Shown here one piece after another: positions 45,463 through 57,775 of a stretch of 64,000 bases of DNA (position 1 is the first letter of the stretch; each line of letters opens with the position of its first letter). The stretch is from Muribaculaceae bacterium (GTDB lineage: Bacteria; Bacteroidota; Bacteroidia; Bacteroidales; G3-4614), in NCBI GenBank assembly GCA_017546805.1, contig JAFYRT010000075.1, positions 20,104 to 84,103 of the forward strand, given 5' to 3'. The translations under genes were made by a program, and so were the position numbers. The notes under the pieces were generated by a model. The model saw only the letters and a program-made list of their open reading frames with translations, made no database searches and was not told the DNA's origin.

Positions 45463-45678
45463 ATGTCAGAAAAAGAGATGAATTCATACCGATTTGGCAC
45501 AGGACAAGAACCAACAGACGAAATGTTAAGCCAAATAATGAAAGAAGTTGCTCAAGAAGCTGTAGAAAGCAGAAAAGAAGTTGAAGCATTTCTTTTAAAA
45601 CAAATGTGTTTGAATATTGTCAAAAAACAAGAACAATGGGCTGACCGCATAAATAGCATTATCAATGAAAGAAACTAA
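45463..45678 (+). CDS. small acidic protein, putative antitoxin partner of the zeta-like ATPase
   Basis: 71-aa ORF that overlaps the downstream ATPase gene by 14 nt (45665-45678). No family recognised. Confidence 0.5.
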   Translation: MSEKEMNSYRFGTGQEPTDEMLSQIMKEVAQEAVESRKEVEAFLLKQMCLNIVKKQEQWADRINSIINERN

Positions 45679-46273
45679 TATTAAACCTGAGTTGATAATT
45701 ATTGCCGGGCCTAATGGATCAGGCAAGACATCAGTAACAAAGAAATTCTTACATCACGAATGGGCAGAAGGAACCACATATATAAATCCTGACGAGGTTG
45801 CTAATGATATATTCGGCGATTGGAACTCTAAAGAAGCTGTATTAAAAGCAGCTGATTATTGTGCCAAGTTAAGAGAAGATTGCTTGAAAAACAAACAAAG
45901 TTTTGTATTTGAAACAGTAATGTCTGCAGATGATAAAGTAGATTTTATATTAAGAGCAAAGGAAAATGGCTTTTTTATTCGCCTATTCTTTATATCTACA
46001 GATACTCCTATTATAAACGCATCAAGAATAGCAAATCGAGTAATGAAAGGAGGGCATGACGTGCCTATTTCCAAAGTAATTTCAAGATATTATAAATCAA
46101 TAGAAAATTGCAAGACAATATCATCTGTTGTTGATAGACTATATATATACGACAACTCTATAGACGGAGAAGAAGCAAAACTACTGTTTCGCTTAACAAA
46201 CGGAACTCTTGCAAAAAAATATGTAGCAGATATTCCCGAATGGGCAAAGCCAATACTCCCCGATAAAAATTAA
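45665..46273 (+). CDS. zeta-toxin-like / COG4185-type P-loop kinase
   Basis: 202-aa ORF with Walker A IIAGPNGSGKTS near the N-terminus. Size and layout match the zeta_toxin/AAA_33-like kinase family. Confidence 0.65.
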   Translation: MKETNIKPELIIIAGPNGSGKTSVTKKFLHHEWAEGTTYINPDEVANDIFGDWNSKEAVLKAADYCAKLREDCLKNKQSFVFETVMSADDKVDFILRAKENGFFIRLFFISTDTPIINASRIANRVMKGGHDVPISKVISRYYKSIENCKTISSVVDRLYIYDNSIDGEEAKLLFRLTNGTLAKKYVADIPEWAKPILPDKN

Positions 46274-46296
46274 TAACATAATTAAATATTACAAAA

Positions 46297-46327
46297 CCGT
46301 TCTATCTTAAAGGTAGAGCGGTTTTTT
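46297..46327 (+). terminator. intrinsic terminator after the zeta-like gene
   Basis: 10-bp stem ccgttctatc (46297-46306) / ggtagagcgg (46312-46321) with two G-U pairs, followed by TTTTTT (46322-46327). Confidence 0.7.
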
Positions 46328-46818: not shown

Positions 46819-49800
46819 ATGGAATTAATAGACAATGTAAATAAAACACTTAAAGAAGATCTCATCGCAGAGATTAAATCTGGTAGTAAAATATCTATAG
46901 CGGCTTCGTGTTTTTCAATATTTGCATTCCAAGAATTGAAAGAGCAACTAAAAGATATTGAAGAACTCCGTTTTATTTTTACATCGCCAACTTTCGTAGC
47001 AGAGAAAGCAAGTAAACAAAAGAGAGAGTTTTATATTCCTCGACTTAATCGTGAACGCAACCTTTATGGTTCAGAATTTGAAGTAAAACTTCGTAACGAA
47101 CTTTCTCAACGAGCAATCGCAAAAGAGTGTGCCGAATGGATTAAAGAAAAGGTATGTTTTAAGTCTAATCGCACAAATGAAAATATGATGGGATTCATTA
47201 ATGTTGATAATACCAACTATATGCCTATCAATGGTTTTACTACAGTAGATATAGGATGCGAAAGAGGCAACAATGCTTATAGTTTTGTTCAAAAGACAGA
47301 AGCACCACTTTCTAAACATTTCCTTGACCTATTTGAACAACTTTGGAATGATAGTTCTCGTATGCAAGTTGTTACCGAAGAAATACTTGATAATATCACA
47401 AATGCATATAAAGAGAATGCACCTGATTTCCTTTACTTTATTACTCTATATAACATCTTCAATGAATTTCTCGAAGATATATCAGAAGATGTATTACCAA
47501 ACGAAGCTACAGGGTTCAAGAATAGTATCATTTGGAGCAAACTTTACAACTTTCAAAAAGATGCTTGCCTTGCAATAATAAATAAACTTGAGAAATATAA
47601 TGGATGTATTCTCGCAGATAGTGTAGGTTTGGGTAAGACATTTACCGCACTTTCTGTTATCAAATATTACGAAAATCGTAATAAAACAGTTCTTGTACTT
47701 TGCCCTAAAAAACTCAATGATAACTGGATTACATATAATAACAATTATATAAACAATCCTATAGTTGGAGATCGCTTACGATATGATGTATTTTTCCATA
47801 CCGATTTATCTCGTAGCGCAGGTTATTCTAACGGACGTGACTTATCGCACATAAATTGGAGCAATTACGACCTTGTAGTAATTGATGAAAGCCATAACTT
47901 CCGTAATGGAGGCAAAGTTACAACCGACGAAAACGATGAGAATCCTCGTGAAAATCGTTATTTGCAATTGATGAATAAGATTATTCGCAAAGGTGTAAAG
48001 ACAAAAGTACTTATGCTTTCAGCAACACCAGTGAATAATCGTTTTAACGACCTTAAAAATCAAATTGCACTCGCTTATGAGGGAGAAAGTGATAAAATAG
48101 ATAAATTACTCAATACAAAAAGTAGCATTGATGATATTTTTCGTCAAGCACAGCGAGAATATAATATTTGGTCAAAACTCCCTTCAGAAGAACGCACAAC
48201 CAAGCGTCTGCTTGAACGATTAAGTTTCGATTTCTTTGAGGTACTTGATAGCGTAACTATTGCTCGAAGCCGCAAGCATATTGAGCAATATTACGATACT
48301 ACTGACATTGGAAAATTTCCAACAAGATTATCTCCAATTTCACGCAGGCCACACCTTACAGACCTTGACAGTGCAATTAATTACAATGATATATACTTAT
48401 TGTTAGAAGGACTTAATCTTGCAATATATACTCCGTCTGACTTTATTTTACCAAGCAGACTTGATAAGTATATGAACATTACAAGTGAGGAAGATTACTC
48501 AAACCTCACAATGAAAGGTCGTGAGCGTGGTATTCGCAAATTAATGAGTATCAATCTACTCAAACGACTTGAAAGTTCGGTAAACTCTTTCCGTCTATCG
48601 CTTAATCGTATTCTCGGATTTATATCATCAACCGTTGCTAAAATCGACACTATAAGTCATGGCGGGGGTAGTGTATATGTTGATGAACACGATTTTGAGG
48701 GACTTGACCTTGAGGAACAAGAAGATATATTCATCGGAGGCAAAAAGAGTAAAATTGCTCTCGAAGATATGGATTATGTTGCTTGGAAACAATATCTTGA
48801 CAAGGATATAGAAACACTTAATTTGTTGCTTCTTATGCTTGCAGACATAACTCCTGAGCATGATAGCAAACTACAACAATTAATTGACGACTTAAAATAC
48901 AAATTTGCTAATCCTATAAATGAAAATAATAAGAAGGTAATTATATTTACAGCATTCTCAGACACTGCTGAATATCTTTACGAAAACCTTGCAGATAGTA
49001 TTAAAGAGAGATGCAATTTAAATACAGCAATAGTTACTGGTAGTTCTGATGCTAAAAGTACAATACGTCTTCGCAATCGTCAAAAGCTCGACTTTAATAC
49101 TCTGCTCACTCTTTTCTCCCCTATATCTAAAGAGAAAGCGGCTTTATTACCTGATATAAGTGAAGAAATAGATGTATTAATAGCAACTGATTGTATAAGT
49201 GAAGGTCAGAACTTGCAAGACTGCGACTTCCTTATCAATTATGATATCCATTGGAACCCAGTGCGTATTATTCAAAGATTTGGAAGGATTGACCGCATAG
49301 GTTCTCGCAACGAAGTTATACAACTCGTTAACTACTGGCCCGATATGGACTTGGACGAATACATTGACCTCAAAGGACGTGTTGAAGCTCGTATGAAAGT
49401 GTCTGTAATGACCAGTACGGGCGATGACAACCCCATTTCTCCTGAAGAAAAGGGCGATTTGGAGTATCGTCGTGAGCAACTTAAACGCTTGCAAAGCGAA
49501 GTTGTGGATATTGAGGAGATGAACACCGGCATCAGTATCATGGACTTGGGATTGAATGAGTTCCGTTTAGATTTGCTTGCCTATATGCAAGATAATCCGA
49601 ACATTGAATATACCCCATTCGGTTTGCATGCTGTAGTACCTGCTACAGAAGGTTGTCCTCCAGGAGTGGTGTATGTACTGAAGAATCGCAACAACAATGT
49701 AAATATCGATCGCAAGAACCGTTTACATCCATTCTATTTGGTCTATATCTCTGATGATAGCGAAGTTGTTGTCAATCACCTATCTCCAAAAGAGTTGCTC

Positions 49801-50058
49801 GACAGACTCCGTTACCTATGCAAAGGAAAGTCAAGCCCGAATAAGGAACTATGCAAGGAGTTCAACCGCATTACCCGAGACGGAAAGAACATGCAACACT
49901 ATTCCGAGCTGTTGGGTGATGCAATTGCGTCTATCATCGACGTAAAAGAGGAAAGCGACATTGATTCTTTCCTCGGCGGTGCCACTGGCTCACTCTTTAC
50001 AGAAGAGATTAAGGGACTTGACGATTTTGAATTGATATGTTTTTTGGTAATCAAGTAA
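46819..50058 (+). CDS. SNF2-family helicase/translocase with ~230-aa uncharacterised N-terminal domain
   Basis: 1079-aa ORF with motif I LADSVGLGKTF, motif II VVIDESHNFRN, motif III LMLSATPVNN, motif V/VI region TDCISEGQNLQ and RIIQRFGRIDRIGS. Confidence 0.85.
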   Translation: MELIDNVNKTLKEDLIAEIKSGSKISIAASCFSIFAFQELKEQLKDIEELRFIFTSPTFVAEKASKQKREFYIPRLNRERNLYGSEFEVKLRNELSQRAIAKECAEWIKEKVCFKSNRTNENMMGFINVDNTNYMPINGFTTVDIGCERGNNAYSFVQKTEAPLSKHFLDLFEQLWNDSSRMQVVTEEILDNITNAYKENAPDFLYFITLYNIFNEFLEDISEDVLPNEATGFKNSIIWSKLYNFQKDACLAIINKLEKYNGCILADSVGLGKTFTALSVIKYYENRNKTVLVLCPKKLNDNWITYNNNYINNPIVGDRLRYDVFFHTDLSRSAGYSNGRDLSHINWSNYDLVVIDESHNFRNGGKVTTDENDENPRENRYLQLMNKIIRKGVKTKVLMLSATPVNNRFNDLKNQIALAYEGESDKIDKLLNTKSSIDDIFRQAQREYNIWSKLPSEERTTKRLLERLSFDFFEVLDSVTIARSRKHIEQYYDTTDIGKFPTRLSPISRRPHLTDLDSAINYNDIYLLLEGLNLAIYTPSDFILPSRLDKYMNITSEEDYSNLTMKGRERGIRKLMSINLLKRLESSVNSFRLSLNRILGFISSTVAKIDTISHGGGSVYVDEHDFEGLDLEEQEDIFIGGKKSKIALEDMDYVAWKQYLDKDIETLNLLLLMLADITPEHDSKLQQLIDDLKYKFANPINENNKKVIIFTAFSDTAEYLYENLADSIKERCNLNTAIVTGSSDAKSTIRLRNRQKLDFNTLLTLFSPISKEKAALLPDISEEIDVLIATDCISEGQNLQDCDFLINYDIHWNPVRIIQRFGRIDRIGSRNEVIQLVNYWPDMDLDEYIDLKGRVEARMKVSVMTSTGDDNPISPEEKGDLEYRREQLKRLQSEVVDIEEMNTGISIMDLGLNEFRLDLLAYMQDNPNIEYTPFGLHAVVPATEGCPPGVVYVLKNRNNNVNIDRKNRLHPFYLVYISDDSEVVVNHLSPKELLDRLRYLCKGKSSPNKELCKEFNRITRDGKNMQHYSELLGDAIASIIDVKEESDIDSFLGGATGSLFTEEIKGLDDFELICFLVIK

Positions 50059-50060
50059 CT

Positions 50061-50660
50061 ATGTACGGCTTACCACAGACAACAGAAGTTCGAAAGCAGT
50101 TGCCCAAGAAAGCAATTTATGCAAAGTTTGAGTTGAAGTCCTCGCAACGTGAGAGTTTCGATGCAGACATTGCACGCATAGACATTGTGGCGGTTGTTTC
50201 AACCTCTACTGTACCAGCACTGAATGTCGGAACTGAGGTAAAGGAATTTTATCTGCTTGCCGTACAGCTGAAACGCAAGGGGTACGACAGTAAGAATATC
50301 GCACTGCTAACCAAACTTATTCCGCAACGGATGGTGTTTGCCCTTCAATTTGAGGAGCAGATACAGTTTGCCATCTATCACACAAAACTTATTTCATCGG
50401 CTTGGCAAACTACAGAAGAGGCCACGCTTCCATTGTCAGGATTAAACCTCGATGTTGTGTGGGAGAATATAATCGCCACGATTGGTAATATCACCATTGT
50501 TGGTGGTAATAACATTGTTGAGCAGATTGCAGAGGATGATACACACGCCAAACTGATGAAGCAGATAGAACAGTTGGAGAAGAAGGTTCGTGCCGAGAAG
50601 CAACCTCGCAAGAAGTTGGAACTATTTGAGAAATTGAAGGGGTTGAAGAAAAATTTGTAA
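50061..50660 (+). CDS. DUF4391-like protein
   Basis: The ORF track gives 50037..50660. I prefer the ATG at 50061 (MYGLPQTTEVRKQLPKKAIYAKF...), 2 nt after the SNF2 stop. The N-terminal pattern matches my memory of DUF4391, which typically follows SNF2 helicase genes. Confidence 0.6.
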   Translation: MYGLPQTTEVRKQLPKKAIYAKFELKSSQRESFDADIARIDIVAVVSTSTVPALNVGTEVKEFYLLAVQLKRKGYDSKNIALLTKLIPQRMVFALQFEEQIQFAIYHTKLISSAWQTTEEATLPLSGLNLDVVWENIIATIGNITIVGGNNIVEQIAEDDTHAKLMKQIEQLEKKVRAEKQPRKKLELFEKLKGLKKNL

Positions 50661-50664
50661 TAAT

Positions 50665-51624
50665 ATGTCCAACATAAGCAATACTTTAATTGAAAGAGAA
50701 GGTGTAGCGGCTGTTCAACAGTGTTTAACACGAATGGGGTGGATTTTTAGAGAGAATTCTCACACTGATTATGGAATAGACGGAGATGTAGAGCAAGTAA
50801 TGGATGATAAACCCACCAATTTACATATTGCTCTTCAAATAAAATCAGGACCTTCATACTTAAAAGAAAATAAGGATGGGAATATTACATTTTATATTGA
50901 TGAGTGGCATTACAAATATTGGTTGCAATCAGACAGACCTGTTCTTATTTTATTTTATGACAATGTAAATGATAGGGTTATTTGGGAACAAGTCAAACTC
51001 CGTAATATACAAACTACCAACTCACAATATAAGATTGTAATAAATCCTACAAAGATTTTGAATAAAGATTGTTTGCTAGAACTTAATGACATTATAGCGA
51101 CACACCAACCTCAGCACTTTTACGAATTGACAGACGAGTATAACGATTTCGAGTTTTCTCATTATTGTTACCAAGAACTAAATAGGTCTATTGGTGAATC
51201 GTGTAATGATGTGCTACACTTTAGGGAGGGCATTAAACACCAAGGCGTATCTCTCAATTCGGCTATTATAAAATCGCTAATAAATGATTTAGCAGACAGG
51301 ACACAAAGTCGCACGACAAGGGAATATGAATGGCTACACAAAGGATGTTGGTATTTGCAAACAATGGCGCAGCACATTGACCCATTTTTATTTACGATGC
51401 TGGTAGAGTGCGTTGATGAATATATCACTATAATCGACTACAATACTACCATTTGGCAAGGAATAGTTAATGATATATCAAAACTGTTCCACCCAAACGT
51501 TCCTAATGACATCCAACAATGTGCAGGAAGATGTATCACAATTATAGAAGATAGATTTGCCACATACGAATTAGTCAAAGGAGAGTATCAAAAGTGTATT
51601 AGAATAACAAAGGAACGAAAATAA
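50665..51624 (+). CDS. DUF4365 (PD-(D/E)xK nuclease-like) domain protein with unknown C-terminal domain
   Basis: 319-aa ORF. The N-terminal ~110 aa, EREGVAAVQQCL...TDYGIDGDVEQV...ALQIKSG, fits a D..(D/E)xK restriction-endonuclease-like core. The C-terminal ~200 aa carry no recognisable motif. Confidence 0.6.
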   Translation: MSNISNTLIEREGVAAVQQCLTRMGWIFRENSHTDYGIDGDVEQVMDDKPTNLHIALQIKSGPSYLKENKDGNITFYIDEWHYKYWLQSDRPVLILFYDNVNDRVIWEQVKLRNIQTTNSQYKIVINPTKILNKDCLLELNDIIATHQPQHFYELTDEYNDFEFSHYCYQELNRSIGESCNDVLHFREGIKHQGVSLNSAIIKSLINDLADRTQSRTTREYEWLHKGCWYLQTMAQHIDPFLFTMLVECVDEYITIIDYNTTIWQGIVNDISKLFHPNVPNDIQQCAGRCITIIEDRFATYELVKGEYQKCIRITKERK

Positions 51625-51639
51625 AACTAACCAAATAAT

Positions 51640-53556
51640 ATGGAAAAACTAAAAATGCAGACTGCTGATATGGCAGAGCGAAATATCAAGATGTTGGGAC
51701 AGATGTTCCCGAACTGCTTGACCGAGACCATCAATGCCGACGGTAAGTTGGTGCGTGCTATCGACTTCGATAAGTTGCGTCAAGAGTTGGCGTGTGAGGT
51801 TGTCGAGGGAGCCGATGAGCGTTATCAATTCACTTGGCCAGATAAGCGTGCTGCTATCCGTTTGGCAAATGCACCTATCAACAAAACCCTTCGTCCTTGT
51901 CGTGAGGAGAGTGTTGATTTCGACAACACCGAGAACCTCTATATCGAGGGCGACAACTTGGAGGTGCTGAAGTTGCTCCGTGAGAACTACTTGGGTAAGG
52001 TGAAGATGATTTACATCGATCCTCCATACAACACTGGTAACGACTTTGTCTATAACGATGACTTCGCACAGGGTAAGGCGGAGTTTGAGGCACAGAGCGG
52101 TCTGTTTGACGAGGAGGGACGCCGTATGGCAGACCCTATGGTGCAGAATACCGAGAGCAATGGTCGTTTCCATACCGATTGGCTCAATATGATTTATCCT
52201 CGCCTAAAAGTTGCCAAAGACTTACTCACTGACGATGGCGTTATCTTTATATCAATTGATGATAATGAGGTAAGAAACCTTCGCAATGTGTGTGATGAAG
52301 TTTTTGGAGAACAAAACTTTATAGCAAATCTAATATGGCAAAAGAAGTTTTCAAGAGCAAATGATGCTAAATATTTTTCTACAATGCACGACCACATATT
52401 ATGCTATTGTAAAGTTAATATTTACACATCTGATAACGGATGGCAAATTGGACTATTGCCAAGAGGAGAAGAAATACCAAGTGGTTATGCAAATCCCGAT
52501 AATGACCCAAGAGGAGTTTGGACATCTGTTATCTTATCAGCAAAGTCGGGGTCAGAAAGTCTTGTTTATGAAATAGAAACGCCAAGCGGACGCAAAGTTC
52601 TTCCTCCAAGTGGAAGATATTGGTGCTGTAATAAAGAGACTTTTGTAAAATGGAAAAATGACGGTCGTATTTGGTTTGGAGCAGACGGAAATGGAACTCC
52701 TCGCAAGAAAACATTTTTATCAGAGGTTCAAGATGGATTAAGACCAAATACAATTATTCTTCATTCTGAAGGTGGCCATAATCAAGAAGGCAAGCAGGAA
52801 ATGAAAGCACTTTTTGATGATATAGGAGTATTTGATGGTCCGAAACCGATAAGATTACTTCGTTATTTATCAACTATCGCAAATCTGAATGAAGATTCCA
52901 TTGTATTAGATTTCTTCTCTGGCTCTGCAACAACGGCACACGCTGTAATGCAGTTAAATGCCGAAGACGGTGGTAATCGCAAGTTTATTATGGTGCAACT
53001 ACCCGAAAAGACCGATGAGAAAAGCGAGGCTTATAAGGCTGGCTACAAGAACATCTGCGAGATAGGCAAAGAGCGTATCCGTCGTGCAGGACGCAAGATT
53101 AAGGAGGAGAACGCAACGAAGGAGGGTATCGAGCGACTCGATGTGGGCTTCCGTGTATTGAAACTCGATGAGTCGAATATGGCAGATGTATATTATACCC
53201 CTGCCGAGACTCCAATACAGACCACATTGAACTTTGATGCGTTGGTGGATAATATCCGTGAGGGACGCACAGCCGAAGACCTCTTGTTCCAAGTATTGCC
53301 TGAATGCAACTTACCTCTATCGAGCAAGATAGAGATACGAGAGATACACGGCAAGAAGGTGTTTATTGTGGAGGATGGCTACTTGATGGCTTGCTTCGAC
53401 AACGACATCAACGATGCTGTAATCACCGCCATAGCGAAGGAGAAACCATACTACTTTGTGATGTGCGATCGCTCGATTGCATCCGACAGCGTCGCCGACA
53501 ACTTCGACCAAATCTTCAACGCTTACAGCAAGGATACCGTTAGGAGGATATTGTAA
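51640..53556 (+). CDS. mod: type III-like (beta-class) DNA methyltransferase, Mod subunit
   Basis: 638-aa ORF with motif IV IYIDPPYNTGNDF preceding motif I VLDFFSGSATTAHA (beta permutation). The N-terminal FTWPDKR...TLRP...NLYIEGDNLEVLKLL is typical of type III Mod proteins. Confidence 0.85.
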   Translation: MEKLKMQTADMAERNIKMLGQMFPNCLTETINADGKLVRAIDFDKLRQELACEVVEGADERYQFTWPDKRAAIRLANAPINKTLRPCREESVDFDNTENLYIEGDNLEVLKLLRENYLGKVKMIYIDPPYNTGNDFVYNDDFAQGKAEFEAQSGLFDEEGRRMADPMVQNTESNGRFHTDWLNMIYPRLKVAKDLLTDDGVIFISIDDNEVRNLRNVCDEVFGEQNFIANLIWQKKFSRANDAKYFSTMHDHILCYCKVNIYTSDNGWQIGLLPRGEEIPSGYANPDNDPRGVWTSVILSAKSGSESLVYEIETPSGRKVLPPSGRYWCCNKETFVKWKNDGRIWFGADGNGTPRKKTFLSEVQDGLRPNTIILHSEGGHNQEGKQEMKALFDDIGVFDGPKPIRLLRYLSTIANLNEDSIVLDFFSGSATTAHAVMQLNAEDGGNRKFIMVQLPEKTDEKSEAYKAGYKNICEIGKERIRRAGRKIKEENATKEGIERLDVGFRVLKLDESNMADVYYTPAETPIQTTLNFDALVDNIREGRTAEDLLFQVLPECNLPLSSKIEIREIHGKKVFIVEDGYLMACFDNDINDAVITAIAKEKPYYFVMCDRSIASDSVADNFDQIFNAYSKDTVRRIL

Positions 53557-54749
53557 TGGAAATTAATCCAGACAACATAAAAGAGATTATCCAAAATAAT
53601 TGCCATAATATGGCTTTTATTATTGGCAATGGCATACATTACCAATACAAGGATTGTGACATTTCGTGGAATGATTTATTGATATCATTATGGGAAGAGT
53701 GTTTTGGTGAGAAATTAGAAATTCCCCAAGGTATATCAACTACTGAATTTTTTGACATTATAGAAATGAATTTCTATAAGAATAATAACTATGTGTCTAA
53801 TCCAAATAAAATTAAAAGTCATACAGTAAAGATAACAGACCTGCAAGATGTTAAATCTGATGATTTAGTGCAAATAATGTTTAAGTTGGCTGGCAAATCA
53901 TCGAATACAAACATTGTAAATAATAATGCAATAGAAGAGTTTCGTGATAAGCACGAAAAATTTGTAGAAAATTGCAGAAAGTGGTGTGAGGCAAATATTG
54001 AAGATACTGCAAATTTAACAAATGAGAATTGTGTTTTTCAAGTTCTAGATGTATTATCAAATGAAACAAAAAAGCAAATTGTAACAAATGCTATCAAGAA
54101 AACTGTTGCTAAGAAATTCCCATCTAAAGAAAGATGTAATTTGGATAAATGTATTCAAGGAATTAAGAAGTTAAATACACCAATTTTAACTACTAATTTT
54201 GATACATATATAAGTGAATCCATAGAAAAAACTAAACTAAAAATATTGAAAAACGGACAATATAAATTTACAGATTTCTATCCTTGGAATATGTGCTATA
54301 GTGATAAGAGTCTAGAAAATCCGTTAGATGGTTTTGCAGTATGGCATATTAATGGTATAGTTAAATATCCTAGAAGTATTAGACTCGGGTTAAGCGACTA
54401 TATGGGGTGTGTGGAGCGTGCTCGCAAAATGATACAGGGGACAAACTTGAACGAGTATTTTAGCGGCAAAAATCAAGTAGGTTGGAAAGGGTATAATACT
54501 TGGCTTCATATAATATTCAATAAATCGCTTTTTATATTTGGTCTAGGACTTGAAGAGAATGAAGTTTTTTTAAGATGGCTACTTATTCAGCGTGCTAAAT
54601 ACTTTAGAATGTATAATAAGACTTTTGGAGGTTGGTATGTAGATAAGGAAATAAAACCAGGAAAACGATTCTTCTTGGAACAATTAGGTTTTGAGGTAAT
54701 TGATATTTCCGATTATAAAACATTGTATCAAGCATTAGAAACACTATGA
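53556..54749 (+). CDS. SIR2-like (SIR2_2 family) protein, putative NADase effector
   Basis: 397-aa ORF with AFIIGNGIH (GxG), ILTTNFDTYISE (TTNxD), VWHINGIVKYPRSIRLGLSDY (HxxG...DY) and LFIFGLGLEENEVFLRWLL. The order and spacing match the SIR2_2 domain layout. Confidence 0.65.
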   Translation: MEINPDNIKEIIQNNCHNMAFIIGNGIHYQYKDCDISWNDLLISLWEECFGEKLEIPQGISTTEFFDIIEMNFYKNNNYVSNPNKIKSHTVKITDLQDVKSDDLVQIMFKLAGKSSNTNIVNNNAIEEFRDKHEKFVENCRKWCEANIEDTANLTNENCVFQVLDVLSNETKKQIVTNAIKKTVAKKFPSKERCNLDKCIQGIKKLNTPILTTNFDTYISESIEKTKLKILKNGQYKFTDFYPWNMCYSDKSLENPLDGFAVWHINGIVKYPRSIRLGLSDYMGCVERARKMIQGTNLNEYFSGKNQVGWKGYNTWLHIIFNKSLFIFGLGLEENEVFLRWLLIQRAKYFRMYNKTFGGWYVDKEIKPGKRFFLEQLGFEVIDISDYKTLYQALETL

Positions 54750-57700
54750 AGTTCAAATTTAAGATACAGCAATATCAGACCGATGCGGTAGAACGCACAG
54801 TGGAGGTATTCGAAGGACAGCCATCTATGGATAGTCTGACCTACCGCCGTGACCTCGGTAAGCGTGCTGCGACTTTGTATGATGACGAGTTGGAGATGGG
54901 CTACCGAAATAGCGAGATACAGTTGCTCCCCAAAGAGATACTCGCAAACATCCGTAAGGCACAGGCAGCAGGAGATATCAAGTTATCCGATTCGCTCGTG
55001 CCCAGCATAGGTGCGTGCAGTCTCGATATCGAGATGGAGACAGGAACGGGTAAGACCTATGTGTATATCAAGACGATGTTTGAGTTGAACAAGCGTTATG
55101 GTTGGAGCAAGTTTATCATTGTTGTGCCAAGTATCGCTATCCGTGAGGGTGTTGGCAAGAGTTTTGCTATGCTCGAAGACCATTTTATGGAACACTACGG
55201 CAAGAAGGCTCGTTGGTTTATCTATGACAGTAGCCGTTTGAAGAGTCTTGATGACTTTTCGAGCGATGCGGGTATCAATGTGATGATAATAAACACCCAA
55301 GCATTTGCAACGTCGCTCAAAGAGGGTGCAAAGAACAAGGAGAGCCGCATTATCTACTCAAAGCGTGATGACTTTGCAAGTCGCCGTCCGATTGATGTGA
55401 TTGCAGCGAACCGTCCTATTATCATTATGGATGAACCACAGAAGATGGAGGGAGAGGCTACACAGACCGCTCTTAAACGCTTTATGCCGTTGTTCATCCT
55501 TAACTACTCGGCAACCCATAAGACCAAGCACAACACCGTATATGCACTTGATGCACTTGATGCCTACAACAAGAAACTCGTAAAGAAGATTCAGGTTAAG
55601 GGCTTTGAGGTCAAGAACCTGAAAGGTGCATCAAGTTATCTATACATTGACAGCATCATCCTATCGAAGAACGACCCACCGATGGTTAAAATCGACCTTG
55701 AAATGAACACAGCGTCAGGCATACGCCGTAAGTCTATGAAGTTCGGTAAGGGAGATAAACTATATAGTGTTAGTGGTCTTAAACAATACGAGGGCTTCGA
55801 TATTGCAGAGATTAACCCATATACAGACACCGTTACATTTCTCAATGGCATAACACTCCGCAAGGGTGAAGTATTTGGAGATAGCAGCGAATTGGCAATG
55901 CAGCGTGTTCAGATTCGTGAGACCATCGTTTCGCACTTTGAGAAGGAGCGTGAATTGTTTGCACGAGGCATTAAGACACTATCGTTGTTCTTTATCGACG
56001 AGGTGGCGAAATACAAGAGTTATAATGCCGAAGGTGAGATTGAACAGGGTGTGTTCTGGAAGATGTTTGAGGAGGAGTATATCAGTATCCTCAATGAAAA
56101 TCTTTCGTTGTTTGACTCCGACTATCAGCAGTATCTACGCCGATTTGATGTGGGCGAAATACATAATGGCTACTTCTCAATCGACAAGAAGGGTCGTTCG
56201 GTAAATAGTGAAGTGAAGCGAGGTCGTGATACCTCGGACGATATATCGGCATACGACCTTATCTTGAAGAACAAGGAGCGTCTATTGAGTTTTGATGAAC
56301 CTACACGATTCATCTTCTCGCATTCAGCACTCCGTGAGGGTTGGGATAACCCAAATGTATTCCAAATCTGCACGCTCCGACACGCTAACTCTGCAACAGC
56401 CAAGCGTCAGGAGGTAGGTCGAGGTTTGCGTATCTGCGTGGATGCAAGTGGTAATCGTATGGACTTTGAGACTCTCGGCGAGAATATCCACGAGTTGAAC
56501 AAACTGACCGTGATTGCCAATGAGAGTTACAGCGACTTCGTAGGCGACTTGCAGCGTGAGACCCGTGATGTGCTCCGCGACCGTCCTACAAAGGCTGATG
56601 AGGCATACTTCACAGGCAAACTCGTATTTGTGGGTGATGACAAGCGTGCAATCACCGCAGAAGAGGCTAATTCTATCCGTGCCTACCTTTGGGATAATGA
56701 CTATATCGACGACAAGGGACAGGTTACAGAGCAGTATAAGACCGATTTGGCAGAAGGCAACCTTGCACCGATGTCCAAGAAATTGGCTCCTATGGCTGAC
56801 AGCATACAGTTATTGATTCGTGCATTGTATGATGATTCTGTGGCTATTGATTCAATGTTTGAGGATGGTAATGCTACCGTTGTCAAGGAGAATAAATTGA
56901 ACGATAACTTTGCCAAGGAGGAGTTCCAAGCACTCTGGAAGGAGATTAACCACAAATACGCCTACACAGTTCATTACAACAGCAATGAGTTGGTAGAAAA
57001 GGCTGTGTTGAACATAAACGCCAACCTCGAAGTTAATCAGTTGCGTTATGTAGTGGTTACGGGCGAGCAGGATAGTGTTGATGCCTTTGGCAGCACAACC
57101 TCTACCTCGAAGCGTGTAGGTGCAGTATCAACATCAACCGTTAAATATGACCTTGTAGGTGAGATTGCAAGAGGTGCAACATTGACCCGTAGAACGGTTG
57201 TAGAGATATTGAAGAAATTGAGGGGTGAGAAGTTGGCGATGTTTCAGAATAACCCAGAGGAGTTCATCCGCAATGTGGTTAAATTGATTAAGGAGCAGAA
57301 GGCTACAATGATTGTGGAGCACATATCATACAACCAGATTGAGGGTGGCTATGATAGCAGCATATTTACCCAAGAAAAGCAAAATCAATCATTCAGCAAG
57401 GCATACTCATCGAAGAAGCACATTATGGACTATGTATTCAGCGATTCGGATGGCGAGCGTAAGTTTGCATCGGCTCTCGATGGAGCATCAGAAGTATGCG
57501 TGTATGCGAAGTTGCCTCGTTCGTTCCAAATCCCTACACCAGTAGGCAACTATGCTCCTGACTGGGCGATTGCTTTAAATGAAGGTGTAGTTAAGCATAT
57601 ATTCTTTGTTGCAGAAACAAAAGGTTCGCTTGATAGTTTAGAACTTAGAGGTGTTGAAAAAGCAAAAACTGAATGTGCTAAAAAACTATTCAATCAGTTA

Positions 57701-57775
57701 TCTACTTCTTCAGTCAAATATGGTGTAGTTGACAAGTTTGAAAGTCTTTACGATGTGATTAATTCAATTGACTAA
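54746..57775 (+). CDS. res: type III restriction enzyme Res subunit (SF2 helicase + C-terminal PD-(D/E)xK nuclease)
   Basis: 1009-aa ORF with motif I METGTGKTYVY, motif II IIMDEPQKM, motif VI-like QEVGRGLRI and a C-terminal nuclease motif YAPDWAI...FFVAETKGS. Confidence 0.85.
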   Translation: MKFKFKIQQYQTDAVERTVEVFEGQPSMDSLTYRRDLGKRAATLYDDELEMGYRNSEIQLLPKEILANIRKAQAAGDIKLSDSLVPSIGACSLDIEMETGTGKTYVYIKTMFELNKRYGWSKFIIVVPSIAIREGVGKSFAMLEDHFMEHYGKKARWFIYDSSRLKSLDDFSSDAGINVMIINTQAFATSLKEGAKNKESRIIYSKRDDFASRRPIDVIAANRPIIIMDEPQKMEGEATQTALKRFMPLFILNYSATHKTKHNTVYALDALDAYNKKLVKKIQVKGFEVKNLKGASSYLYIDSIILSKNDPPMVKIDLEMNTASGIRRKSMKFGKGDKLYSVSGLKQYEGFDIAEINPYTDTVTFLNGITLRKGEVFGDSSELAMQRVQIRETIVSHFEKERELFARGIKTLSLFFIDEVAKYKSYNAEGEIEQGVFWKMFEEEYISILNENLSLFDSDYQQYLRRFDVGEIHNGYFSIDKKGRSVNSEVKRGRDTSDDISAYDLILKNKERLLSFDEPTRFIFSHSALREGWDNPNVFQICTLRHANSATAKRQEVGRGLRICVDASGNRMDFETLGENIHELNKLTVIANESYSDFVGDLQRETRDVLRDRPTKADEAYFTGKLVFVGDDKRAITAEEANSIRAYLWDNDYIDDKGQVTEQYKTDLAEGNLAPMSKKLAPMADSIQLLIRALYDDSVAIDSMFEDGNATVVKENKLNDNFAKEEFQALWKEINHKYAYTVHYNSNELVEKAVLNINANLEVNQLRYVVVTGEQDSVDAFGSTTSTSKRVGAVSTSTVKYDLVGEIARGATLTRRTVVEILKKLRGEKLAMFQNNPEEFIRNVVKLIKEQKATMIVEHISYNQIEGGYDSSIFTQEKQNQSFSKAYSSKKHIMDYVFSDSDGERKFASALDGASEVCVYAKLPRSFQIPTPVGNYAPDWAIALNEGVVKHIFFVAETKGSLDSLELRGVEKAKTECAKKLFNQLSTSSVKYGVVDKFESLYDVINSID

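Follow-up and report, generated by a model that had tools for sequence, protein, structure and literature searches.

Defence genes that are nested within other defence loci have been surveyed for Hma, BREX, DISARM and type I restriction-modification (R-M) systems (Payne et al. 2024, bioRxiv 10.1101/2024.01.29.577857), a survey in which type III R-M is not treated and SIR2 is not mentioned, and TgvAB is located inside a type I R-M operon of V. cholerae (PMC11411939). PrrC, an anticodon nuclease and suicide-type effector, is encoded within the operon of the type Ic system EcoprrI (PMC12707154). In the case of EcoR22I, a type III R-M system accompanied by an SNF2 (DrmD-like) helicase, Ocr triggers cell death (Silas et al. 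2023, bioRxiv 10.1101/2023.04.06.535777). On the side of the effectors, FAM118B and the bacterial antiphage SIR2 proteins constitute one clade, termed SIRim, apart from the deacetylase sirtuins, and FAM118B/FAM118A (SIRanc) are filament-forming SIRim sirtuins (bioRxiv 10.1101/2024.09.18.613514; PMC12700824). Here we describe a stretch of 64,000 nucleotides (nt) from a Muribaculaceae bacterium (assembly GCA_017546805.1, contig JAFYRT010000075.1, positions 20,104 to 84,103), denoted as the window, with all coordinates counted from its first letter as position 1. In this window a gene for a SIR2_2/SIRim-like protein of 397 amino acids (aa) is inserted exactly where the genes for Mod and Res meet in a type III R-M cassette (53556-54749, + strand). 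The encoded protein is probably an autonomous, single-protein SIRim abortive-infection effector, carried as operon-embedded and interchangeable cargo.

The host cassette has the components of a type III R-M system, namely an N6/N4 methyltransferase as Mod subunit and, as Res subunit, a superfamily 2 helicase with a C-terminal endonuclease, both of full length. The intact Mod methyltransferase (638 aa, 51640-53556, + strand; Pfam N6_N4_Mtase) matches the PADLOC model MTase_III with an E-value of 5e-235 over profile positions 2-620 of 621, and the intact Res subunit (1009 aa, 54746-57775, + strand; Pfam ResIII and RE_endonuc) matches REase_III with 3.7e-296 over positions 1-986 of 989 as well as NCBIfam PRK15483 with 1e-113. 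The SIR2-like gene overlaps both of them. Its ATG (53556-53558) shares one base with the Mod stop codon TAA (53554-53556) in the sequence TAATG (53554-53558), whereas at the other end its TGA (54747-54749) and the Res ATG (54746-54748) form the 4-nt overlap ATGA (54746-54749). Direct reading of the sequence thereby confirms the two overlaps as they had been given in a first-pass annotation of the window, which was made from the letters alone.

The insert does not contain any non-coding sequence and therefore has no promoter, terminator or ribosome-binding site of its own, so that the SIR2-like gene would be expressed as part of a run of six closely spaced open reading frames (ORFs) on the + strand (46819-57775, from the ORF list). 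For the same reason the scans for sigma-70 promoters (41 sites, 41.4 expected) and terminators (10 sites, 8.3 expected) are uninformative with respect to the insert. The Bacteroidetes-type promoter TTTG...TAnnTTTG has no site in the island and three in the whole window, which is about the number expected by chance, and at the gathering threshold the island is without an Rfam match. Between 46819 and 57775 the + strand lacks terminator-like sites whose stem exceeds 6 bp. The strongest terminator-like hairpin of the region, a 15-bp stem followed by a T run, is located upstream of the operon (46293-46325, + strand) and is probably the 5′ limit of the transcription unit. Judging from the 1-nt and 4-nt overlaps, Mod, the SIR2-like gene and Res would be co-transcribed and translationally coupled.

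That the gene is an insertion is seen from two metagenomic relatives, L034 and L033, in which Mod is directly followed by Res and the slot is empty. Their Res genes are 92-94% identical to that of the window at the nucleotide level and their junction reads TAA-TTGGATGAGTT-ATG, with an 11-nt spacer. In blastn alignments of these loci the homology to the window is lost at 53557 and regained at 54745; the segment 53558-54744 (+ strand) therefore took the place of the 11-nt spacer TTGGATGAGTT. The SIR2-like gene is an exact insertion at the Mod/Res junction, as the first-pass annotation had proposed. Its base composition had been noted as deviant as well: the GC content is 0.33 in the sample 53601-53700 and 0.299 in the entire ORF, compared with 0.476 in the last 450 nt of Mod, 0.473 in the first 450 nt of Res, 0.44-0.48 in the cassette backbone and about 0.36 in the remainder of the window.

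The protein harbors the SIR2 motifs in the order in which they had first been read. A GNG motif (G24-N25-G26, nt 53625-53633) is followed by TTNFD (residues 212-216, nt 54189-54203), WHING (263-267, nt 54342-54356) with SDY (280-282), and FGLGLEENE (328-336). The candidate catalytic residues, Asn214 in TTNFD and His264 in WHING, are both retained. In 35 homologues with 42-66% identity the residues G24, N25, G26, T212, T213, N214, D216, W263, H264, N266, G267, D281, Y282, G329, L330 and E336 are invariant. Within the broader family Asn214 is kept in all 53 sequences of an alignment denoted A2, and His264 in all 35 of the close members and in 43 of the 53 distant ones.

In the His264 column of alignment A2 the ten deviating sequences contain seven Tyr and one each of Phe, Asn and Gln, with the catalytic Asn kept, and 16 of the 53 members have the sequence WxIHG, where a His is found two residues further on. 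From these alignments, some members of the family may lack activity or rely on a His in a shifted position.

Taken alone, the window protein provides thin evidence of its identity. Pfam PF13289 (SIR2_2), for which the gathering score is 24.5, is matched with 24.7 bits (E 2.7e-5, aa 210-287 only), NCBIfam and PADLOC contain nothing usable for it, a single-sequence search of the PDB chains gives no match, and a profile of the close subfamily retrieves from the solved structures noise and a weak SIR2 match (E 0.42). The sirtuin identity is settled by the family context. PF13289 is matched by 36 of the 53 diverse members, with a best E-value of 6.2e-10, and no member matches another family. The profile built from alignment A2 finds human FAM118B as best among the solved structures (E 1.3e-6), pairing GNG with GTG, TTNFD with TTNFD and WHING with LHIHG, and ThsA with E 0.015 via the Gly-rich loop and TTNYD. 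The family is large, with 1127 homologues at E<1e-3 among 90% clusters and 969 clusters at 50% identity across phyla, and most of its members are single-domain proteins of 300-400 aa.

An AlphaFold2 model calculated with the 35 homologues as input has a predicted local distance difference test score (pLDDT) of 84.7 and a predicted template-modelling score (pTM) of 0.81, and falls below a pLDDT of 50 only at residues 79-92 and 116-119. The predicted structure displays a Rossmann-type SIR2 fold. When it is compared with the PDB by Foldseek, all 50 listed matches are SIR2 proteins of defence systems (ThsA, KomC/HAM-SIR2, DSR2, Avs5, SPARSA), with a probability of 1.00, E-values from 2.5e-7 to 1e-4 and target-normalised TM-scores of up to 0.66. 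The window protein is distinguished from a short form of the family (about 310 aa) by roughly 90 additional residues, a helical insertion (approximately aa 75-165) that is variable within the family. Hence the Pfam check and the structure prediction that had been suggested for this gene both favor a SIR2_2-type protein with candidate Asn and His, the former by a marginal pass and the latter with ThsA and DSR2 among the listed matches. The window protein is a real but divergent SIR2_2/SIRim sirtuin. By analogy with the defence effectors of the same fold it is probably NAD-destroying, that is, a putative NADase, where NAD denotes nicotinamide adenine dinucleotide.

The fold and the Asn/His motifs are shared with ThsA, DSR1/DSR2, SIR2-HerA, SPARSA, Avs5 and KomC/HAM-SIR2, whereas the sequence similarity to these proteins is at or below detection. 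Thoeris ThsA was rejected for this locus, as SIR2_2 is the only Pfam domain, without SLOG or Macro, and no TIR gene (thsB) is present in the operon; DSR1/DSR2 were rejected because these proteins reach about 1000 aa and end in a large C-terminal sensor, in contrast to the 397 aa found here. SIR2-HerA, SPARSA and Avs5 drop out since neither HerA nor pAgo/APAZ nor STAND is encoded in the operon and an all-against-all clustering of the neighbours in 28 loci of the family reveals no conserved partner gene. FAM118B/FAM118A are likewise SIR2-only proteins of similar size with common GxG, TTNFD and HIxG motifs; the window protein differs from them in that it is bacterial, is encoded in a defence operon and has a different helical insertion. 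No match to a phage genome and no viral structural relative is found for the SIR2-like protein, and on these grounds neither an origin from phage nor a role in anti-defence was considered further.

From metagenomes, the 80 orthologues most similar to the window Res (66-97% identity) were taken together with their flanks, and the states of the Mod-Res slot were counted on the 71 loci that hold both a Mod C-terminus and Res, the loci not being de-replicated. Mod and Res are 2-14 nt apart in 24 of the 71, a conserved spacer of about 161 nt separates them in 11, and other cargo, amounting to 0.4-4.6 kb of extra genes, occupies the remaining 36. The cargo comprises about 20 unrelated families, nearly all oriented as the operon, among them Schlafen/AlbA_2 (with or without HATPase_c_4), TPR, RhuM, pentapeptide-repeat, AbiJ, AAA_21, AAA_15, a KwaB-like protein behind a 200-aa ORF, Fic with a helix-turn-helix (HTH) protein, DUF2971 and several families without a Pfam match. 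The SIR2-like gene itself is present in none of the 80. Irrespective of the family, the stop codon of the last cargo gene overlaps the Res start as ATGA in 20 of 37 cargo loci, the window included, and the first cargo gene usually starts -1 to +19 nt from the Mod stop. As this tight packing does not depend on the cargo family, the overlaps are a property of the slot and not of the SIR2-like gene.

The spacer of about 161 nt (L041-L043, L048, L049, L051, L053, L054, L057, L060 and L069; for instance L053 9837-10000) is non-coding and rich in GCAA/GGCA-type repeats, with only a chance-level match in Rfam (E 0.84); it may have a regulatory role or be left over from an exchange of cargo. Slot ORFs without Pfam match are found in L098 (3029-3913, 294 aa), L038 (9219-10004, 261 aa), L074 (3755-4219, 154 aa), L055 and other loci, and by their position they are candidate new defence genes.

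The age of the cargo relative to its surroundings can be judged from L115, a near-identical relative with a filled slot, which matches the window without a break over 52909-55815 at 92.5% nucleotide identity. The SIR2-like genes of the two loci (window 53556-54746, L115 2518-3708) are 96.8% identical with a synonymous divergence (dS) of 0.06, whereas the adjoining N-terminal part of Res is 92.1% identical with a dS of 0.44, about seven times as high. The common ancestor of the cargo is therefore more recent than that of the flanks, and we take this difference in divergence to mean that the cargo moves between cassettes which had already diverged. A ratio for the Mod C-terminus was left unused, since the ungapped comparison was misaligned (70% nucleotide identity).

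The same comparison bears on the idea that the gene is a functionless or decaying passenger merely tolerated in the operon, which we regard as extremely unlikely. Presence and absence do vary between near-identical loci, and the ratio of nonsynonymous to synonymous divergence (dN/dS) of the SIR2-like gene against L115 is relatively high at 0.43, a value derived from few substitutions; that of the Res N-terminus is 0.03. A decaying gene is at odds, though, with the full-length frame in which every family-invariant residue is intact, with a catalytic core conserved in the 969 clusters across phyla, and with the preserved overlaps that would keep Res translationally coupled. Furthermore, the changes against L115 lie mostly in residues 1-200, and the lowest dN (0.015) is found in the catalytic half.

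In the centre of the Mod gene (approximately 52280-52900) no nucleotide match to L115 or L033 is found, while the loci are otherwise 87-92% identical, and residues 220-378 of the Mod protein are unaligned in L115. At the sequence level it gives the impression of an exchanged target-recognition domain, so that the near-identical cassettes probably have different specificities.

The contexts of the SIR2-like family at large were collected by individual homologue look-ups and a scan of GTDB species representatives. Further copies occupy type III slots (L006-9, L011, L013, L031, L115, L116, L119), and in L117/118 the gene order is Mod, SIR2, AbiJ, AbiJ, Schlafen, Res. Among the other copies, that of L012 immediately follows a type IIG Eco57I/MmeI-like enzyme and that of L014 is close to a fusion of ResIII with an Eco57I methylase; L017 has its copy behind a type I HsdR, L026 and L027 have theirs flanked by HsdS and Mrr, and in L028 and L010 the gene comes after a type ISP enzyme and a DUF4011 helicase-nuclease, respectively. 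In L001-3 the gene is found between HTH and T5orf172 genes in the absence of an R-M system, plasmids of Agrobacterium and Sphingomonas carry solo copies annotated as 'hypothetical protein', and in L004 an intact copy is situated between mere fragments of Mod and Res, that is, in a decayed cassette. A neighbour-joining tree shows the copies from type III slots as polyphyletic and the contexts as interleaved: the type III copy of L013 has its sisters, at about 70% identity, in the type IIG-like L014 and the type I L017, and the window copy groups with the R-M-free L001. From the R-M-free copies, the polyphyly and L004 it is argued that the SIR2-like protein would not need Mod or Res.

These contexts bear on the proposal that the SIR2-like protein is a guard in the manner of PrrC, held latent on Mod/Res or on Mod and released by an anti-restriction protein to deplete NAD+. 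In both cases a suicide-type effector gene resides inside an R-M operon as a conceptual backup for blocked restriction. With its gene nested in an intact R-M operon by start and stop overlaps, and time and again the first one behind Mod in type III cassettes that are independent of each other (L006-9, L011, L115-L119), and with a wider family that is often adjacent to genes for the methylase or the specificity subunit in R-M systems of other types, such a guard has its attractions, and there are precedents in PrrC of EcoprrI and in the Ocr-triggered death by EcoR22I. The slot and the overlaps are, however, common to some 20 unrelated families, so the packing is not SIR2-specific. Copies of about 70% identity stand beside type III, IIG and I systems (L013, L014, L017), and since such close copies switch the R-M type, a co-evolved protein interface is unlikely. 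Copies without a nearby R-M system, the one in the decayed cassette and the lack of the gene in all 80 closest metagenomic Res orthologues point in the same direction. PrrC is tied almost exclusively to one R-M type, which it binds physically, and targets tRNA, while the SIR2-like family switches between types I, IIG, ISP, III and R-M-free loci and is predicted to target NAD+; the near-exclusive association with one R-M family that is characteristic of PrrC-type guards is not seen here, given the varied contexts and the polyphyletic tree. Nothing in the data requires a guard function of this kind, and we consider it unlikely.

EcoR22I is likened to the present cassette by architecture alone, that is, by the common backbone of SNF2 helicase, mod and res, and as a type III R-M system linked to programmed death. 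For its death response Mod and Res are sufficient and an embedded effector is not required, and the paper describing it does not mention DUF4391.

A more general form of guard, which binds to the part responsible for methylation or specificity in whichever R-M system it follows (Mod, HsdS, IIG, ISP) and depletes NAD+ once phage anti-restriction proteins block this part, as an NADase counterpart of PrrC across R-M types, appears quite unlikely to us. If it did hold true, the type III cassette with its two slots would be a dedicated platform for swapping 'anti-anti-restriction' effectors. The pairing of restriction and suicide that the first-pass annotation had envisaged stands insofar as a SIR2 gene is indeed present at the junction; a dedicated partnership of the two does not agree with the roughly 20 cargo families, the varied contexts, the polyphyly and L004.

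Among the sirtuins there are families that act on proteins as ADP-ribosyltransferases or deacylases. The SIR2-like protein could accordingly be imagined as a regulator that tunes restriction without killing, through an NAD-dependent modification (ADP-ribosylation or deacylation) of Mod, Res or DNA, for which the position of the gene between Mod and Res would be convenient; FAM118 proteins, moreover, process NAD only weakly (PMC12700824). On the other hand, all listed structural neighbours are NAD-depleting defence effectors, the family also occurs without any R-M system, and the near-identical cassettes L033 and L034 do without the gene, which makes a regulatory role very improbable.

A recurring block of genes is formed by the short-form SIR2-like gene, AbiJ, an AbiJ-related ORF of about 300 aa and RhuM. 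It is found in the decayed type III locus L004 (9001-12297), where the ORF of about 300 aa is missing, beside the ResIII and Eco57I fusion of L014 (10001-13580) and at the type I HsdR of L017 (10001-14238). This distribution of homologous genes suggests that cargo moves as sets.

In the reading that is preferred here, an autonomous effector carried as exchangeable cargo, an infection cue would switch the SIR2-like protein on and NAD+ would be consumed, by analogy with ThsA, DSR2, Avs5 and KomC. Cargo without expression signals of its own would be transcribed with the operon, its translation coupled to that of Mod, and the translation of Res coupled to that of the cargo. The Mod-Res slot would then serve as a platform for expression and dissemination of many defence genes, and R-M and cargo would confer layered, mechanistically independent protection, the effector being co-expressed and co-transferred with a first-line R-M system. 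As possible leads to the trigger, the variable helical insertion and a filament-based activation as in ThsA, Avs5 and FAM118B (PMC12700824) may be considered.

Several observations weigh against this reading. In type III slots the SIR2-like gene is almost always the first after Mod, and the family has a real tendency to adjoin R-M genes, about half of the surveyed GTDB homologues having one at a distance of two genes or fewer; this position next to Mod and the proximity to R-M could reflect a functional tie rather than hitch-hiking. The dN/dS against L115 amounts to weak purifying selection. With respect to the chemistry, the Pfam match is marginal and the PADLOC SIR2 model is matched with an E-value of only 0.009, ten of the 53 distant members have no His in the His264 column and not every member need be an NADase, and no sensor domain is evident except for the poorly modelled helical insertion. 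The defence and NADase roles of the family are predicted ones.

The Mod-Res junction is not the only variable site of the cassette, as the interval between DUF4391 and Mod constitutes a second slot. Its cargo includes DUF4365 (window, L011), AbiGi, DUF4238, AAA_21 with RloB, AAA_14/DUF4143, DUF2971 and a TIR protein; otherwise it contains a protein of about 600 aa without Pfam match (L105 5257-7077; 11 loci), by its position likewise a candidate new defence protein, or is empty. The cargo families of this slot and those of the Mod-Res slot form separate sets. Cassettes of the type SNF2-DUF4391-Mod-Res occur in gut and rumen Bacteroidales-type bacteria. Compared with the guests described under guilt-by-embedding, the present locus has the same properties: the gene is nested in an R-M operon and co-oriented with it, its slot is variable with many alternatives, and non-embedded homologues exist. 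It differs in that the host is a type III mod-res operon, that there are two slots with non-overlapping cargo sets and start/stop overlaps, and that this SIR2 family has no significant match to a PADLOC v2 model.

In the literature searched, to which most subscription journals do not belong, no description was found of a SIR2 gene, or of a hotspot for cargo, in the interval from mod to res of type III systems, and the same is true for the arrangement when literature on DUF4391 with type III or on guilt-by-embedding with type III is considered. Embedding in type III R-M and this SIR2 subfamily thus appear to be undescribed, whereas embedded defence genes and SIR2 effectors are established concepts. 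The novelty claimed at first has to be narrowed accordingly: embedding in R-M systems and type III-linked cell death had already been described, and what holds is that a SIR2 gene within a mod-res operon was not found described. The finding overturns nothing, and the embedding site is conceptually familiar. It extends guilt-by-embedding to type III R-M, with two exact cargo slots in the SNF2-DUF4391-Mod-Res cassette, where genes known from abortive infection (AbiJ, KwaB, RhuM, Fic, Schlafen, TIR, RloB-type ATPases) are present in about half of the relatives, next to several unannotated families, and it supplies a short list of candidate defence genes together with ready-made isogenic empty-slot controls. 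The SIR2-like family represents a large, uncharacterised set of minimal single-domain immune-type sirtuins, the closest solved relative by sequence being human FAM118B, and a bacterial model for the switching on of a SIR2-only protein, perhaps by filament formation or via the helical insertion, would be useful.

The remaining genes of the operon precede Mod on the + strand. The first one encodes an SNF2-family helicase of 1079 aa (46819-50058; Pfam SNF2-rel_dom, ResIII and Helicase_C), which matches the PADLOC model C3a139 'HKD+Snf2' with 3e-115 and DrmD-like models partially, and which is kept upstream of Mod-Res in most orthologous loci. Its 3′ end shares 22 nt with the gene of a DUF4391 protein (207 aa, 50037-50660; PF14335, 5.5e-30), a conserved backbone gene that comes after SNF2 in related loci too. 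In the second slot of the window, a DUF4365 protein with an Mrr-like nuclease N-domain is encoded (319 aa, 50665-51624; PF14280, 5e-30). Its gene has a GC content of 0.347 and is missing from the otherwise near-identical L115; the best PADLOC match of the protein is Aga_REase, an Argonaute-associated restriction endonuclease (2.7e-24), and its C-terminal region of 170 aa has no assigned function. Just upstream of the operon a zeta-toxin/AAA_33-like P-loop gene is located (45665-46273, 202 aa, GC content 0.337), after which the hairpin at 46293-46325 follows.

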